The translations under genes were made by a program, and so were the position numbers. Shown piece by piece: positions 2,293 to 20,000 of a stretch of 20,000 nucleotides of DNA. Below the pieces are notes generated by a model, which saw only the letters and a list, made by a program, of their open reading frames with translations, did not search any database and was not told the DNA's origin. This DNA comes from an uncultured virus (IMG/VR IMGVR_UViG_3300046454_000431) (Duplodnaviria; Heunggongvirae; Uroviricota; Caudoviricetes). The number at the start of each line of letters is the position of its first letter. Within the stretch, counting starts at the first letter, position 1. Location: the IMG/VR virus record IMGVR_UViG_3300046454_000431; one strand, written 5' to 3'.

Positions 2293-3065
2293 CGGGGATC
2301 AGCGAACCGCTCACCTATAACAGCTACGTCTCTGCCATCGCGACCCTTGCTGTCGTCCCGACGCAGGGAGACAGCGGTGGCGTGATGCATTTCACCGAGC
2401 CGAATCTCGATGGCGTCGTCCCACAGATGCTGAATTACGCGGAGCTTCGCATCCAGCGCGACCTTAATCACCTGGCGTCGCAGAAAATGCGCTCCTACGC
2501 GCTGGCGGATGGCTCCTGGGAATTGGACATCCCCTTCGATGATCTCGTCACCGTCCAAAACATCACTCTCGCGGGGGTGACCGACACCACTGTTTTCTCC
2601 GCATTGACGCCGGTGTCGAAAGAGTTTTGGCAAACCGTTTACATTGATCCCGACTATACCGCCGTCCCGAAATATTTCACGCCTGTCGGCGGCGAGTTAA
2701 ATCCGGCGGGCGCCACATATCACATTTACTCCATTATGCCGAAGCCAGATCAGCCGTATAAGGCTTATGTCACAGGCACCGCGCGCATGCCCTCGCTGTA
2801 CATGAAAAAGAACTCTGAGCCTAACAGCGGAACAACCTTCATTTCGAGCCAGATGCCTGATCTTTTGCTGATGGCGAGCATGGTGTTTTTGAGCGCGTAC
2901 CAGCGCAACTTTAGCTCGGCAGGCTCCGATCCGCAGATGCCGATCAATTACGAGACGCAATACCAGACCCTGCTGAAGGGCGCGATGGTGGAGGAAATGC
3001 GGCGCCGCTTCTTGATGGTGCCAGGGTCGAGCGATGCGCCGTCGCCGGCGAATATGAAGGGCTGA
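2289..3065 (+). CDS. Head-to-tail adaptor (T7 gp11 / P22 gp4-like position)
   Basis: 258 aa. N-terminal LTYNSYVSAIATL...MLNYAELRIQRDL, central P.YF...PKPDQPY and C-terminal PDLLLMASM...YETQYQTLL patterns are typical of podovirus adaptors. Lies directly upstream of the nozzle gene. Confidence 0.7.
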   Translation: MTGISEPLTYNSYVSAIATLAVVPTQGDSGGVMHFTEPNLDGVVPQMLNYAELRIQRDLNHLASQKMRSYALADGSWELDIPFDDLVTVQNITLAGVTDTTVFSALTPVSKEFWQTVYIDPDYTAVPKYFTPVGGELNPAGATYHIYSIMPKPDQPYKAYVTGTARMPSLYMKKNSEPNSGTTFISSQMPDLLLMASMVFLSAYQRNFSSAGSDPQMPINYETQYQTLLKGAMVEEMRRRFLMVPGSSDAPSPANMKG

Positions 3066-3068
3066 CCC

Positions 3069-5255
3069 ATGCCGCACCAGGTTCTCAAAGTCCAGCCCGG
3101 CGTCAACACCAACGAGACGCCTGTCCTGAACATGGCCGGCATTTCGGAATGCGACAAAATCCGCTTCAGGCAAGATCCAGCCGGCTTGGGCCTGGTCGAG
3201 AAGCTGGGCGGCTGGACGCGCTTCTACACCGGCGTTTTCGATTACGCCGTGCGCCATCTCTTCGTGTGGCAGGAAATCGACATCGACAAGTTCGTGGCTG
3301 TCGGGATGGCTGGCCTGGGCGGCGTCGAGCTTTTGCGGGCGCAGGATGAGCTTAATCCGATCACCGGTCTGCCCACGGGTTTCTCGACAGCGACGCCCAG
3401 CGGCGCCCTGCCTCTCACGCCGCTGTTCAGGAATACGGACGCTCCGAACACTACGATCCTGGTTTCGACCGTGGCCGGCAGTCCGTTCGTCTCCATAACC
3501 GATCCATCGCTCGACCAGATCCACACCACGGATTCGGTCTATTTCGCCACCCATGTCGCCGTCGGCGGCCTTGTCCTGTTCGGGCAATATGCGGTCTACG
3601 CGACGACGTCTTTCACCAGCTATCAGATCGTCGCGCGCACGGTGCTCGGCGCGCCGCAGGCGGCATCTACGACTGCGGGTTCGACAACCGCTGTTCCGCC
3701 GCTCTTCACCACGGCGACCAACAGTTATGAAATTACTGTCACGCTGCCGAAACACGGCTACGTGGTTGGTGATGTCTTCCCGCTGCTGATCGCCACCGCC
3801 GTCGCCAACATCACGCTCGCGCCGCGCGAGTACGAGATCCAGCGGATCACCGACGTGGATCACTTCGTCATCCTGGCGAACGAGATCGCGACGTCAGGCG
3901 CGTCGGCCTATCCGAACGGCGGCAACTTCCGCCTGATTTATAATATCGGCGGCGCCCCCAGCAACATCATCAGCGGCTACGGCGCCGGCATTTACGGCGG
4001 CACGGCTGGAGACGGCGGCTATGGCCGAAACAGTGGCGGCGCGCCGACAGCGCCAGGAACGCCGGCCTCGGCCACGGATTGGAACTTCGACAACTGGGGC
4101 AGCATCCTGCTCGCCAGCCCCAGGAACGCCGTCGTCGATGGCATTCCGGTGTCTGGCATCTACCAGTGGGAGGATGAGACAGGCGCCAAGGTGCTCGCGG
4201 TGATCGCGGAGGCGCCGCCTTGCAATGATGGCTTTTTCGTCGGCATGCCGCAGCGCCAGATTATCACTTGGGGTTCCAGCTTCACCGGCATCCCAGACCC
4301 GCTGCTCGTCCGCTGGTGCGACGTCAACGATTACACCGTTTGGGCGGCGACGATCACCAACCAGGCCGGATCTTACCGCATCCCGAAAGGCTCCAAGATC
4401 GTCGGCGCCCTCCAGGCCGCGCAGCAAGGCATCCTCTGGACCGATATCGGCGTCTGGTCGATGCAGTATATCGGCCAGCCCTACATCTACAGCTTCAATG
4501 AACTCGGCACTGGCTGCGGCATGCTTGCGCAGAAGGGGGCGGGGGCGGTCAATGGCGTGGTCTACTGGATCAGCCACCGCCAGTTCTTCATGCTGTCGGG
4601 GGCCGGCGTTCAACCAGTCCCGTGCCCCGTCTGGGACATCGTCTTTCAGAGCATCGACCGCCGTTATTATGACAACGTCCGGGTCGCGCCCAATTCGATG
4701 TTCAATGAGATCTCCTGGTTCTTCACCTCGGTCAATTCCCCAAATCACGAGAACGATTCCTACGTCAAGTTCAACTACGTGCTGAACGCCTGGGACTACG
4801 GCACGATTGCCCGCTCGGCATGGGTCAACCAAAGCGTCCTCGGCTCTCCGATGGGCGCGGGCGTCAGCCCGGAGGATGGTCAGATCCGCCTGTTCCAGCA
4901 TGAGCGGACGCCCGACGCCGACGGTCAGCCAATGCACTCGTGGTTTGCGACCGGCTATTTTGCGATGGCGGAAGGCGACAGCAAGATTTTCGTCGATGAG
5001 ATCTGGCCCGACATGAAGTGGGGCGCCTATGGCGTCACCAAGAATGCGACGGTCGATCTGACGTTCACGGCCAAGGATTTTCCCGCTCAAGACCCGCTGA
5101 TGACGAACAGTTTTTCCTTCACGGTGGGATCGACTTACGTCACGCCGCGCCTTCGCGGGCGCTTGATGCAGGTGACCCTTGGGAGCAATGATCGCGGATC
5201 GTTCTGGCGCCTCGGCGGCATGCGGTATCGCGCAGCGCCAGACGGGAAATACTGA
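3069..5255 (+). CDS. Tail nozzle / packaged-DNA stabilisation protein (P22 gp10 / T7 gp12-like)
   Basis: 728 aa, beta-rich. Contains PGVN...DKIRFR...EKLGGW at the N-terminus, DPLLVRWCD..DY..W.....NQAGSYR, and a C-terminal RLRGR......WRLG.MR....PDG. Size and synteny fit. Confidence 0.78.
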   Translation: MPHQVLKVQPGVNTNETPVLNMAGISECDKIRFRQDPAGLGLVEKLGGWTRFYTGVFDYAVRHLFVWQEIDIDKFVAVGMAGLGGVELLRAQDELNPITGLPTGFSTATPSGALPLTPLFRNTDAPNTTILVSTVAGSPFVSITDPSLDQIHTTDSVYFATHVAVGGLVLFGQYAVYATTSFTSYQIVARTVLGAPQAASTTAGSTTAVPPLFTTATNSYEITVTLPKHGYVVGDVFPLLIATAVANITLAPREYEIQRITDVDHFVILANEIATSGASAYPNGGNFRLIYNIGGAPSNIISGYGAGIYGGTAGDGGYGRNSGGAPTAPGTPASATDWNFDNWGSILLASPRNAVVDGIPVSGIYQWEDETGAKVLAVIAEAPPCNDGFFVGMPQRQIITWGSSFTGIPDPLLVRWCDVNDYTVWAATITNQAGSYRIPKGSKIVGALQAAQQGILWTDIGVWSMQYIGQPYIYSFNELGTGCGMLAQKGAGAVNGVVYWISHRQFFMLSGAGVQPVPCPVWDIVFQSIDRRYYDNVRVAPNSMFNEISWFFTSVNSPNHENDSYVKFNYVLNAWDYGTIARSAWVNQSVLGSPMGAGVSPEDGQIRLFQHERTPDADGQPMHSWFATGYFAMAEGDSKIFVDEIWPDMKWGAYGVTKNATVDLTFTAKDFPAQDPLMTNSFSFTVGSTYVTPRLRGRLMQVTLGSNDRGSFWRLGGMRYRAAPDGKY

Positions 5256-15209: not shown

Positions 15210-16235
15210 ATGACTGAATTTACACCAGGCAAAGGCCTTAACGTACCGGCTGCAGGGACGCCGAACTGGGACGTGCCGGTGAACACCGACTGGCGCTCCA
15301 TCGATCAGGCCATTGCGGGAGTGCAATACGTTAATGCCGCTGGCTTCACCGGCAACGTCAACCTGTCCAATGCATATCCAACTGGTTCATCCGATCCCGC
15401 CACTACGCTGTCCTGCTTGCCCTCCACGATTGTCATTTACGGAGCTATTGCAGGGGCGGTCAATCTGGTGTTTCCAGACGGCCTTGTGGGCCACTGGATC
15501 ATCAGAAACGCAACCGGCGGGAATTTTGCAGTAAACGTCGTCACGTCTACCGGTACATATAACTATATGTCTGTTCCGCAGGGTGTCTTATCTCACGTCC
15601 ATAGCGACGGCCACACTTTTTATTTTGTCGGCGCGAGCGGCACCACGTCGCAGCTTGCGATGATTGGTGAGATCAAAGCCTGGTCTGGCGGCTGGGTGCC
15701 GACGCAGTGGATGGCTTGCGATGGCCGCTGGCTCGACAGGTTTGCCAACGGAGGGCAGTACGGGCCGCTCTATAACGTTTTTGGCTTCGCCTATGGCGGC
15801 AACGGCTCCAATGCATTCGCCATTCCCGATTTGCGAGGGCGCGTGGTGGCGGGCGCAGACAACATGGGGACGCTAGGCAGCGCCAATCGCCTGAACGGGT
15901 GGGGGATGACGGCTGTCGGCGGCGTGGCGAATCTGGCCTTGACCACCGATCAGTTGCCGTCGCACACGCATTATGATTATGGCCACGGGCACAGCGTGGC
16001 CCAGAACCCGCATCACCACACTATCACCATTCCTGACAATAGCGTCGGGGGACAGCCAGGCGTGGGCTACAGCGGCCAAGGCTGGCCATGGGCTGGAAAA
16101 CCGACGACCGACGAGACTGTCCCCTTGGGGATCTATGCCGGCTACGCCAGCCTCACGAACACCGGCAACGGCAACGCCTTCTCGATCCTGCAGCCGACGC
16201 TCGTCCTGCAATACATCATTTACACGGGCGTCTAG
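15210..16235 (+). CDS. Tail fibre protein with phage tail-collar domain
   Basis: ATG 15210 follows GAGGA. Collar signature IGEIKAW.G...P..WMACDG...Y..LY...G..YGG.G...FAIPDLRGRVVAG, a His-rich tip (LPSHTH..GHGH..PHHH) and C-terminal ILQPTLVLQYII. Confidence 0.9.
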   Translation: MTEFTPGKGLNVPAAGTPNWDVPVNTDWRSIDQAIAGVQYVNAAGFTGNVNLSNAYPTGSSDPATTLSCLPSTIVIYGAIAGAVNLVFPDGLVGHWIIRNATGGNFAVNVVTSTGTYNYMSVPQGVLSHVHSDGHTFYFVGASGTTSQLAMIGEIKAWSGGWVPTQWMACDGRWLDRFANGGQYGPLYNVFGFAYGGNGSNAFAIPDLRGRVVAGADNMGTLGSANRLNGWGMTAVGGVANLALTTDQLPSHTHYDYGHGHSVAQNPHHHTITIPDNSVGGQPGVGYSGQGWPWAGKPTTDETVPLGIYAGYASLTNTGNGNAFSILQPTLVLQYIIYTGV

Positions 16236-16630
16236 GCGGCTCTCGTCTGGTAACAAGCGATCATGTGCTTGGGGCAGTAGATGGTCACGCCGGGTCTATC
16301 GACCGTCTCGCAGCAATAGGTGACGCCCGCCGGCGAGCGCGGATCTCCGAACGGATAACGGCAGGTGAAAGCCGTCAGGCCCATGATCGTCCGATCCTGG
16401 ACAGGCGGCGCAATGGGCGCGGCGATTGTCTTCATCTTGGGCGTCCTCGGCGGTCTGGGTTTACGAGGCGCCAGAACGCTCGCGGCCCGACTGACGTCGA
16501 ATCCGCGAGCGCGGAGCCTGGATATGACACCGATGATCGCGTTCTTGGTTTTACCCAATTTTTCGCCAGCCTCCGTTCCACTGAAGCCGGCTTTCCACAG
16601 GGCCAGGATCGCGACTTCGTCGCTGTTCAT
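16232..16630 (-). CDS. gcrA: GcrA-family cell-cycle transcriptional regulator homolog
   Basis: N-terminal HTH LW..G.S....G.KLG.TKNAIIG...RL, a basic Pro-rich linker, and C-terminal IMGL...TCRYPFGDP....YC......YCPKH. Start is 16630 or 16648. Confidence 0.88.
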   Translation of the reverse strand: MNSDEVAILALWKAGFSGTEAGEKLGKTKNAIIGVISRLRARGFDVSRAASVLAPRKPRPPRTPKMKTIAAPIAPPVQDRTIMGLTAFTCRYPFGDPRSPAGVTYCCETVDRPGVTIYCPKHMIACYQTRAA

Positions 16631-16631
16631 T

Positions 16632-16859
16632 TCAGTTCGTTTGGTCATCTGCCTTTTTCTCGTATCTCACGCCGCAGAACGGGCAGTATGTCGGAACGAT
16701 GAGCGGCATCTTGCTGCGCATGCTGGTGATGATTTTTTCGCTCGCGATCAGCGTGGGGATCACGATCAGATGACCATCGATAACACGAAAGGCGGTCGTC
16801 AGCCTGGCGTTGTTGTCGGCAATCATCTTGTTCATGTCGTCGGCGCAATTGCAGGTCAC
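16632..16859 (-). CDS. Small hypothetical protein with CxC and YCPFCG (putative zinc-binding)
   Basis: GTG at 16859 preceded by GGAG and overlapping the upstream stop (GTGA). Sequence runs TCNC...PTYCPFCG, 75 aa. Confidence 0.7.
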   Translation of the reverse strand: MTCNCADDMNKMIADNNARLTTAFRVIDGHLIVIPTLIASEKIITSMRSKMPLIVPTYCPFCGVRYEKKADDQTN

Positions 16860-18653: not shown

Positions 18654-18688
18654 AAAAAGAGCGCGCCCTGCGCGAACAGGGCGCGCTC
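18654..18688 (-). terminator. Rho-independent terminator after the Gly-rich exported protein gene
   Basis: Perfect 12-bp stem GAGCGCGCCCTG/CAGGGCGCGCTC (18659-18670 / 18677-18688) with a 6-nt loop, followed on the minus strand by TTTTTAT. Confidence 0.85.
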
Positions 18689-18712: not shown

Positions 18713-19075
18713 TCAGTGACCGGCGACGCCGCCGCCGACCGCAATCACGCTCGATCCGCCGCTGGAGGTGGCGCCGGCAAGGCCGTTGCCCGAAGATACG
18801 GCGCCCGTGGACGAAACGGACGAAGCCGTGCCGGCTCCCCCGCCGCCAGCCGCAACCGGGCCGAAGAACGTGCCGGTAGCGACGCCGCCGCCACCCGCAA
18901 CGCCGGTCGCGCCAGCGGTGGTGCCGCCAATCGCAGCCGCGTGGCCGAGCGAACCGACGACGGTCGTCGAGTGGGAGTTGGTGATGACGGTGCCGCCACC
19001 CACGCCGAAGTCGAGAGCGAAGGCCGGGGCCGCAAGCATCGACAGGCCGGCGGCGAGAACAAAGATCTTCTTCAT
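18713..19075 (-). CDS. Exported Gly/Ala/Ser/Thr-rich low-complexity protein
   Basis: Clear Sec signal MKKIFVLAAGLSMLAAPAFA. The mature ~100 aa is almost uncharged. GAGGA RBS at 19082-19086 and its own terminator downstream. Confidence 0.8.
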   Translation of the reverse strand: MKKIFVLAAGLSMLAAPAFALDFGVGGGTVITNSHSTTVVGSLGHAAAIGGTTAGATGVAGGGGVATGTFFGPVAAGGGGAGTASSVSSTGAVSSGNGLAGATSSGGSSVIAVGGGVAGH

Positions 19076-19095
19076 GCTATTTCCTCACGTGTGGT

Positions 19096-19376
19096 GCCAG
19101 GGAAACCGCCCTGGCGCGGATTTCAAGACTACCGCCCGCGACCACGAAACCGCTTATGTGACAGGTCGCGGACGGCAGCTTCTTGCTTTCGTGGCTGGGT
19201 CCGTTTGGAGCAAACCCAGGACGCCCCGCTCTCCACGGGGGACGCAAGATCTCTGCATGACCGCCGAGCCGGTGGGGACGAACCCTTCACCTTCCCTCGG
19301 CGGTCAGCTTGCTTTCGTGGCTCGCTGATGAGCAAGGGCCACGCCCGCTCGGTTCGGCGCGCGGGGACGCAAGATC
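19096..19376 (-). ncRNA. Candidate tandem structured RNA: two copies of a three-way-junction motif plus three hairpins; family not recognised
   Basis: Identical blocks CTTGCTTTCGTGGCT (19182-19196, 19308-19322) and GGGGACGCAAGATC (19238-19251, 19363-19376) flank variable but base-paired interiors. Hairpins at 19258-19306, 19128-19179 (G-U pairs only on the minus strand) and 19096-19115. Confidence 0.6.
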
Positions 19377-19998
19377 AGTTGGAGGCCGTCTTGACGCAGA
19401 CGCCGGCGTCAGCAGACTGGCGGGCGCCCTTGGTGCCGCAGGCGGCGACGACGTACTGGTGGCCTTTCTTGTCGAAGTAGCTGGCCGAACGCTTCATGTC
19501 GAGCGTCACGGGCTGCGACTTTTCGCCGGGAACCTTGCCGTGATATTCGCCCTTGAAGACCGGATGGCCGTAAGGCTCGACCACAGCGACCGTCTGCACG
19601 GCATATCGACCGATCCGACAGCGGACGCCAGAGGCGACCAGGGCCGAAGCTACTTCGTCGTCCTGGCACATGACCTGGATCGCGGCGTCACGCTGCCCGA
19701 AAGCCCATAGAGTGCGAGCGTTGAGGCGCTTGTTGCAAGGCCCGTCCTGCCAGGGAAAGCCAAGCGCCCCACCGCCGCCGACAGCGGCGCCGCCCAGGGA
19801 GACGGAGCCATTGCAGCTTTCAATGCCGGCGGCGCTCATGCCGGGGGCGAACACCGACGGCGACTGGCCGGTGGTGGTCGAATTGAAGGTGTTGGTGTTG
19901 GCCGCGCCAGACTGGTTGGCGTTGACGGAGCGGACGCCGACGTTCTGGCTGCTGTTGATGCGGCTGTTGACGTTGGAGTTGGAGCGCGAGGCCGAATT
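19375..19998 (-). CDS. Hypothetical protein (5'-truncated): Asn/Ser-rich N-region plus Cys-containing domain, probably exported
   Basis: Frame stays open to the window edge: ...NSASRSNSNVNSRINSSQNVGVRSVNANQSGAANTNTFNSTTTGQSPSVFAPGMSAAGIESCNGSVSLGG...D.PCNKRLNARTL...G...AAIQVMCQD. The AP......C.GS.S.G...D..C....A..L...MCQ pattern resembles a recurrent phage hypothetical family. Confidence 0.75.
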   Translation of the reverse strand, partial: NSASRSNSNVNSRINSSQNVGVRSVNANQSGAANTNTFNSTTTGQSPSVFAPGMSAAGIESCNGSVSLGGAAVGGGGALGFPWQDGPCNKRLNARTLWAFGQRDAAIQVMCQDDEVASALVASGVRCRIGRYAVQTVAVVEPYGHPVFKGEYHGKVPGEKSQPVTLDMKRSASYFDKKGHQYVVAACGTKGARQSADAGVCVKTASN

Positions 19999-20000
19999 GG

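Follow-up and report, generated by a model that had tools for sequence, protein, structure and literature searches.

Three-way-junction RNA units and their adjoining hairpins form a single module in an intergenic spacer of uncultured soil phages

The 20,000-nucleotide (nt) stretch of DNA analyzed here as a whole, hereafter the window, comes from the uncultured virus IMGVR_UViG_3300046454_000431 and corresponds to positions 118174–138173 of a 138,254-bp IMG/VR record. On its minus strand, two co-directional genes are separated by a spacer of 299 nt (19374–19076) which contains, from 5' to 3', a three-way-junction RNA unit (unit 1), a long hairpin (hairpin 1), 9 nt of spacer, a second unit (unit 2), hairpin 2, a short hairpin 3, the Shine-Dalgarno sequence GAGGA, and the ATG of the downstream gene. 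An earlier, sequence-only reading of this region had proposed that each long hairpin pairs, through its loop, with the 3' strand of the preceding unit, as a conserved switch or pseudoknot, and that the true repeat may be the unit together with its hairpin. The latter proposal is borne out: unit and hairpin form a module of ~115–125 nt that is gained and lost whole, by type, among a limited group of uncultured phages from soil. The former is not, as the 5- to 6-nt match between the loops and ACGAAA is mostly a coincidence and not a conserved switch. New in this analysis are the rejection of the loop/3'-strand switch, two more gene contexts in which the closing helix of the junction covaries, and the presence of the hairpin beside the unit in 11 of 11 modules.

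The window holds the 3' part of the upstream gene (19375–20000, minus strand), which codes for a secreted protein made of N/S-rich repeats and a Cys-rich C-terminal end, and closes, according to the open reading frame (ORF) list, with the stop codon TGA at 19377–19375. The downstream gene (18713–19075, minus strand), conserved in 11 contigs, encodes a secreted Gly-rich (Gly/Ser/Ala-rich) protein of 120 amino acids, and its start region (19073–19086) comprises the GAGGA at 19086–19082 and the ATG at 19075–19073. Behind it is a canonical intrinsic terminator (18659–18688, minus strand), with a stem of 13 pairs followed by TTTTTAT. The spacer as a whole folds at −148 kcal/mol on the minus strand (z −4.82), versus −137 kcal/mol (z −2.65) on the plus strand.

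Unit 1 (19308–19373, minus strand) and unit 2 (19182–19248, minus strand) are 66–67 nt long and share the junction core, with different distal parts of the helices P2 and P3. In unit 1, the closing helix P1 (CUUGC/GCAAG) is followed by GUC, by P2, by a P3 that opens with CGU and closes with ACG, and by AAA. The covariance model R1 scored unit 1 at 88.1 bits and unit 2 at 29.8 bits (E 5.7e-05). When the relatives described below were included, 14 distinct units from three gene contexts could be aligned, and the core GC-GUC-CC..GG-CGU..ACG-AAA-GC was invariant in all 14. In this alignment (16 pairs in three helices), 99.5% of 205 cells held standard pairs, compared with 30–45% in slid controls in which the partner was moved by 1–3 columns. 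Changes on both sides were found in 9 of the 16 pairs, and none of 500 shuffles reached any of five pairing and covariation measures; an 11-unit version of the alignment was also tested for covariation. P1 itself is CUUGC/GCAAG at this locus, UUUGC/GCGAA in contig L257, CAAGC/GCUUG in L230, and CUUGC/GUGAG in the spacer form designated V6 below. P2 and P3 abut with no nucleotide between them in all aligned units, the junction has six unpaired letters, and its helices include G-U pairs on the minus strand. The junction fold of the units is real.

Some letters of the peripheral loops are specific to the unit type and retained among variants: P3 of unit 1 carries GCUCAUCAGC (19321–19330, minus strand; complement CUGAUGAG), and the P2 loop of unit 2 carries UGGAGAG (19229–19235, minus strand). 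Searches against Rfam at the gathering score returned no match in the whole window. When the limit was raised to E 10, only chance-level matches were obtained in 18900–19500 and in the V2 spacer, none of them to a ribozyme family in 18900–19500.

Each unit has a long hairpin directly 3' to it, at a distance of 0–5 nt, and the letters and positions previously given for these elements were found to be correct. Hairpin 1 (19258–19306, minus strand) has an outer stem of 11 perfect pairs, formed by UGACCGCCGAG (19306–19296) and CUCGGCGGUCA (19268–19258), then an internal loop, four plus three further pairs, and the apical loop UUCGU (19282–19278); the complementary ACGAA is at 19318–19314, within unit 1. 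The stem-loop folds at −31.6 kcal/mol (z −4.51), and none of 200 shuffles was as stable. Hairpin 2 (19128–19179, minus strand) has a stem of 16 pairs (19179–19164 with 19143–19128), three of them G-U, and a loop of 20 nt; its −33.6 kcal/mol (z −6.06) was likewise not equalled in 200 shuffles. The G-U pairs had been taken to fix the coding strand. This holds for hairpin 2, where the drop to −23.1 kcal/mol on the plus strand agrees with its three G-U pairs, but the argument is weak for hairpin 1 (−31.6 versus −29.5 kcal/mol).

Among the nine distinct hairpins found at this locus, all have z scores between −4.5 and −6.1 on the sense strand and eight are more stable on that strand; hairpin 2 is much weaker on the plus strand in four of its five forms. 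The outer stems of 11–20 pairs have nearly no letters in common between variants, and the pairing is nonetheless retained: homologous forms of hairpin 1 with other stem letters are present in L133, L131, and L136, and the stems of hairpin 2 are wholly different yet paired in L129, L133, L131, and L134. The hairpins are genuine stem-loops in the RNA of the minus (coding) strand, and they have been selected. The 3' part of the hairpin-2 loop is also conserved (19145–19153, minus strand; family consensus GYRGUUUCR), as GCGGUUUCG in V1, V2, and V5, GCAGUUUCG in V3, and GCGGUUUCA in V4. In the spacer between the two modules, UGCAGAGAU (19249–19257, minus strand), the CAUGM that stands behind hairpin 1 recurs in relatives.

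A role for hairpins 1 and 2 as intrinsic terminators was considered and rejected: no U run follows either of them in any variant, and in most variants their tails are poor in U, in contrast to the terminator that the phage does possess, which carries such a run. The terminator scan found only the one at 18688–18659, and none at hairpin 1 or hairpin 2. A coding reading was also dropped. An ORF runs from an AUG behind hairpin 1 to a UAA in the hairpin-2 loop in V1 and V2, with a stop after two codons in V3 and another frame in V4; no ORF conserved through the spacer was found across the variants.

Relatives of the locus were collected by pattern and protein-guided scans, which gave 11 further viral contigs (L127–L137), and seven forms of the spacer (V1–V7) can be told apart. 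Two modules are present in V1 (the window, L127/L128), V2 (L129/L130), V3 (L133), and V4 (L131/L132), and in V2, the second copy, an insert of ~170 nt is added. V5 (L134/L135) has one type-2 unit with hairpin 2, V6 (L136) has an extra ORF and one type-1 unit with a hairpin-1-type stem-loop, and V7 (L137) has neither a unit nor a long hairpin, only hairpin 3. The copy number of the module at this spacer is thus 0, 1, or 2, and the unit starts 1 nt past the upstream stop codon in V1–V5. A pattern scan with looser criteria, the matches of which were then scored with the covariance model, revealed two further contexts, both on the sense strand between co-directional genes. In the first (L257/L336), a MazG-like gene and a small Cys-rich gene flank the module; in the second (L230/L282/L287 and L300, three contigs), the module lies between two small ORFs. 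The adjacent long hairpin is present in both, and the module is sense to the flanking genes in all three contexts. In total, 11 distinct modules were obtained (four forms of hairpin 1, five of hairpin 2, and those of L336 and L300), in all of which the hairpin starts 0–5 nt past P1. It is this gain and loss of unit and hairpin together, by type, in V5, V6, and V7, plus the two new contexts, that supports the unit with its hairpin as the true repeat. In each phage record that has any R1 unit, the units are at one locus only.

Several peculiarities of these relatives were noted. The 138-kb record, labeled complete and bearing a 99-nt terminal repeat, consists of two related genomes of ~69 kb placed head to tail, in blocks of ~75–94% identity, and a second, diverged copy of the locus lies within it; two strains that occurred together were probably assembled into this record, which would then not be one genome. 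The insert of V2 lies between hairpins 2 and 3 (G000:C1:68253-68426, minus strand; L129:2229-2423) and has a closing stem of 12 pairs and a T-arm-like GGUUCGAUCC. Its best Rfam match is tRNA-Sec (19.3 bits, E 0.4), and ARAGORN finds no tRNA in it. In V6, the extra small ORF is upstream of the single module (L136:1923-2245) and, having no stop of its own, reads through unit and hairpin to the UGA of CAUGA. The spacer of L300 that carries the L230-type unit (2700-3075, minus strand) is ~490 nt long and has several further strong hairpins; upstream in it is a fragment, GCGUCCC ... GGACGAAAGC, which has no third helix and was not scored by the model.

Exact-pattern scans of the set genome_contigs gave 109 and 42 stretches, approximately the number estimated by chance; of the pattern matches, 100 were scored with R1, all at or below 24 bits, and none of the six that were folded forms the junction. 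The pattern scan of metagenome_contigs returned nothing. With the downstream protein as a guide, no homologue was found in metagenome_contigs or genome_contigs, and viral_contigs yielded the same 11 contigs. No similar DNA was found among 50,697 deposited phage records. A second model, R2, recovered known units only from 66 loci (638 kb) around MazG homologues, and R1 found nothing in three named alphaproteobacterial genomes and 151 sampled genomes of the class, which are weak negatives. A genome search with R1 also returned nothing from the five new records, whose loci cmsearch did recover; its first-look filter loses these units. The 24 sequencing runs listed for the stretch are all of DNA, and four of them contained known forms only and no new variants. 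In the literature, nothing was found on the motif, the letter strings of the core matching unrelated primer sequences only; six supplementary files of PMC10690425 held no occurrence, and its catalogue may still hold the motif in three other files.

The proposed pairing between hairpin loop and unit was measured as the Watson-Crick match of the hairpin interior to the final 16 nt of the unit, with p values from shuffles. In the window, the complementarity of UUUCGUGG (19149–19142) to CCACGAAA (19194–19187) is present as described for module 2, but its final GG (19143–19142) belongs to the stem of hairpin 2, so that only UUUCGU is in the loop. The match is of 5 nt for hairpin 1 (p 0.20) and 6 nt for hairpin 2 (p 0.059), both at chance level. 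Over all modules, p ranges from 0.06 to ~1.0. A match of at least 5 nt occurs in 6 of the 11 distinct modules (p 0.06–0.30), namely, 6 nt in hairpin 2 of V1 and of V5, and 5 nt in the hairpin 1 of V1/V2, in hairpin 2 of V2 and of V3, and in the L300 module. In the other five it is shorter. Hairpin 1 offers 3 nt in V3, 4 nt in V4, and 3 nt in V6, hairpin 2 of V4 offers 4 nt, and the best match in the L336 module is 3 nt (p 0.99), with p 0.64–1.0 among these; homologs that lack the complementarity therefore exist both at this locus and in another context, an outcome that the sequence-only reading had itself named as refuting the pairing.

The loop sequence is not conserved in the manner suggested either. 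UUCGU, which the sequence-only reading considered to be kept in both hairpins, is present in only one of the four distinct forms of hairpin 1 and two of the five of hairpin 2, where only UUUC(G) is retained among variants. The changes UUUCGU to UUUCGG (V2, V3) and UUUCG to UUUCA (V4) shorten the pairing, and no change in the unit compensates for them. Since the target ACGAAAG never varies, positive covariation is impossible. In V5, a C-to-U change in the unit beside the target is compensated not in the loop but in P3 (G to A), turning a G-C pair into an A-U pair.

The energetics lead to the same conclusion. The duplex energy plus the cost of opening, before any pseudoknot penalty, was between −0.7 and +3.6 kcal/mol in the window, V2, and V3, that is, about zero: +1.3 for module 1, −0.7 (6-nt pairing) and −0.6 (8-nt pairing) for module 2, +1.1 for V2, and +3.6 for V3. 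Nested folding gave the junction beside the hairpin as the minimum-energy structure of 10 of the 11 modules, with mean pair probabilities of 0.76–0.98, and the one exception, V6, is an artefact of how the stretch was cut. As for geometry, neither an H-type pseudoknot nor a kissing loop finds room for a second helix in loops of this kind. In hairpin 2, the linker between UUUCGU and the 3' strand of the stem is 0 nt long, and UUCGU is the entire pentaloop of hairpin 1, so by this general rule the proposed helix would be impossible without melting the hairpin. The loops of P2 and P3 were also compared with the hairpin interior, and only isolated matches of 5–6 nt (p 0.05–0.11), inconsistent across variants, were found. 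Most probably, the module has a single folded state in which the junction stands next to the hairpin.

Of the remaining features of the spacer, hairpin 3 (19096–19115, minus strand; GCCAGGG/CCCUGGC, loop CGGUUU) occurs in every one of the seven spacer forms, even in that which has no unit, with the consensus GCCRGGG/CCCYGGC and loop CGGNUU. Behind it, just before the Shine-Dalgarno sequence (19081–19095, minus strand), is a short palindrome whose letters change and whose palindromy is kept, with CACGUG, CACACUGUGUG, CUCUGCAGAG, and others among its forms. The upstream protein belongs to PHROG 20531, to which no function is assigned in PHROG, and it has no Pfam family; its full length, read in the second genome copy of the record, has a signal-peptide-like N-terminus. 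For the downstream protein, neither Pfam nor PHROG gave a match. Both products are of low complexity and bear signal peptides, and they may be a surface or fibre protein pair carried by the phage. A gene for a GcrA-family cell-cycle regulator (16232–16648, minus strand; Pfam PF07750, E 1.4e-12) suggests an alphaproteobacterium as the host of this phage group.

Taking all of the above into account, we lean, with slightly better than even confidence, towards a real, one-state module that presumably acts in cis in a polycistronic mRNA. The module would be transcribed within that mRNA and influence its processing or stability, a step to which, with its variants, we give roughly an even chance. The hairpin may serve as a nuclease barrier or a cleavage site, and the invariant junction GC-GUC-CC..GG-CGU..ACG-AAA-GC may be a site recognized by a protein, or may itself be reactive.

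A number of points weigh against this interpretation. It infers that the module is transcribed and that it influences processing and stability, and the alignments behind the covariation were guided by a model and fitted to the structure, which they therefore favour. The members were all recovered from soil and rhizosphere samples that are related to one another, and so represent few independent lineages. A generic nuclease barrier needs no invariant core, and the core points to a more specific activity; in the same way, a passive barrier does not explain why GYRGUUUCR is kept in the loop of hairpin 2 despite the turnover of its stem. Finally, the invariant CGAA has its complement, UUCG, inside the outer stems of 6 of the 11 distinct hairpins when the interiors are read by eye. 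A stricter count (minimum-energy interior, bulges allowed) gives 3 of 11, versus 1.03 expected (P 0.07), and the hairpins that bear UUCG are related by descent. At most, these observations suggest a weak tertiary contact of the hairpin loop with the invariant CGAAA, at least in module 2.

Other explanations were weighed against the same evidence. Excision of the module from the mRNA as a stable small RNA—a decoy or a trans-acting regulator—is unlikely in our estimation. The junction would then be the functional head, the hairpin a 3' protective stem, and the loop of hairpin 2 a recognition loop, in agreement with the size of ~120 nt, with the layout of a structured 5' domain before a 3' stem-loop, and with the conserved single-stranded motif in that loop. 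The tRNA-like insert of V2 also fits, as the spacer may be a place where small RNA genes collect. However, no promoter-like site was found when looked for at the spacer, neither hairpin makes a U-run terminator, and no target came to light, the complement of the loop motif occurring elsewhere in the phage genome only at the frequency expected by chance.

It is quite improbable that the module is a new self-cleaving ribozyme or a nuclease-resistant RNA, with the junction as the active or blocking site and the hairpin as a required helper. In its favour are the GUC and CGAAA letters, which recall half of the hammerhead core, the core that is unchanged in every aligned unit and in three contexts, the intergenic position in a phage with tandem copies that vary in number, and the start of the unit 1 nt past a stop codon in V1–V5. 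Yet the CUGANGA strand of the hammerhead is missing, P2 and P3 being directly joined, and even the permissive Rfam search gave no ribozyme family. We hold as equally doubtful the variant in which unit and hairpin are a new class of self-processing or nuclease-blocking RNA whose junction is the active site, on the CGAAA of which the recurrent GUU(U)CR of the hairpin would dock by a tertiary contact rather than as a switch.

The switch itself, in which the loop would pair with the 3' strand of the unit (ACGAA with UUCGU, or CCACGAAA with UUUCGUGG) in competition with P3 to make a two-state RNA or pseudoknot of ~125 nt, retains little credence. The complementarity is seen in both modules of the window, UUUCG is kept in four of the five distinct hairpin-2 loops despite stem turnover, and the distant L300 module has GUUCG opposite CGAAC. 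Nevertheless, where present the match is at chance level in each module, it is missing in the five modules listed above, its shortening in V2, V3, and V4 is uncompensated, and it gains about no energy and, by the usual geometry, has no linker for a second helix. The covariation of P3 in V5 at the very position involved supports P3 over the loop pairing. This is the useful negative result of the analysis: the loop-to-strand match is not to be taken as a riboswitch-like switch.

We think it very unlikely that the module is a riboswitch-like attenuator, in which the junction would be the aptamer for a small ligand and the hairpin the expression platform controlling read-through into the downstream gene. 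An invariant junction core with variable peripheral helices, the tandem arrangement, and a strong hairpin after each unit would be in accordance with such a device by analogy. On the other hand, there is no U run behind hairpin 1 or 2 in any variant and no conserved alternative pairing, three unrelated gene contexts provide no common regulated function, one relative (L137) does without any unit, and the junction offers only its six unpaired letters to a ligand. A DNA-level element or plus-strand signal, be it a recombination hot spot or an antisense terminator made of a hairpin and the T-rich complement of CGAAAGCAAG, is extremely improbable: on the plus strand the hairpins are indeed followed by CTTGCTTTCG, and hairpin 1 is about equally stable on both strands, but G-U pairs weaken hairpin 2 there in four of five forms, the junction helices carry minus-strand G-U pairs, no plus-strand gene of the ORF list enters the region, and the element is sense to its flanking genes in every context.

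Should a defined activity be found for the module (cleavage, nuclease blocking, or protein binding), it would represent a new class of small RNA by which soil phages shape polycistronic messages. Such a class would combine a very compact, invariant three-way junction with an obligatory helper hairpin.

Four known systems resemble the module in part. Like riboswitches, including tandem ones, it combines a conserved junction fold with a hairpin behind it, and the pair is repeated in tandem within an untranslated spacer ahead of a gene. It differs from them in that it lacks a U-run terminator and any conserved alternative pairing, occurs in three unrelated contexts, and has a very small junction. 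The exoribonuclease-resistant RNAs (xrRNAs) of flavivirus 3' untranslated regions are tandem three-way junctions directly behind the stop codon, with a loop that pairs outside the junction. The tandem junctions behind a stop codon and the proposed loop-to-outside pairing are shared with the phage locus; here, however, the host is bacterial, sequence and size are unrelated, and the pairing outside the junction is not kept.

The type III hammerhead (Rfam RF00008 and relatives) is the RNA that the module resembles most closely. Hammerheads occur in phage intergenic regions, sometimes in tandem. Both RNAs have three helices at a small junction; GUC stands between the closing and the next helix; and CGAAA leads back into the closing helix. 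The position of this GUC, invariant in 14 of 14 units, is that of the NUH triplet, the hammerhead's cleavage site, between stem III and stem I. In contrast, the phage units have no CUGANGA strand to separate helices I and II (0 nt), P3 takes up the G of GAAA as a paired base in 14 of 14 units, there is no Rfam match, and an extra downstream hairpin is always present. Because the CUGANGA strand is absent, the phage module is not a member of the hammerhead family.

Phage T7 has intercistronic hairpins at which RNase III processes the message, and bacterial operons have 3' stabilisers of the repetitive extragenic palindromic (REP) type; both are sense-strand stem-loops between co-transcribed genes. 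As in these systems, the hairpins described here are long, irregular stem-loops on the sense strand near a stop codon, with no U run and in variable copy number. They are distinguished by the tie of each hairpin to an invariant three-way junction and, relative to REP elements, by their confinement to one locus per phage genome instead of many dispersed copies. By analogy, the module behaves most like these intercistronic processing or stabiliser hairpins, with presumed cleavage or stabilisation as its effect, and with an unusual, invariant junction added to each.

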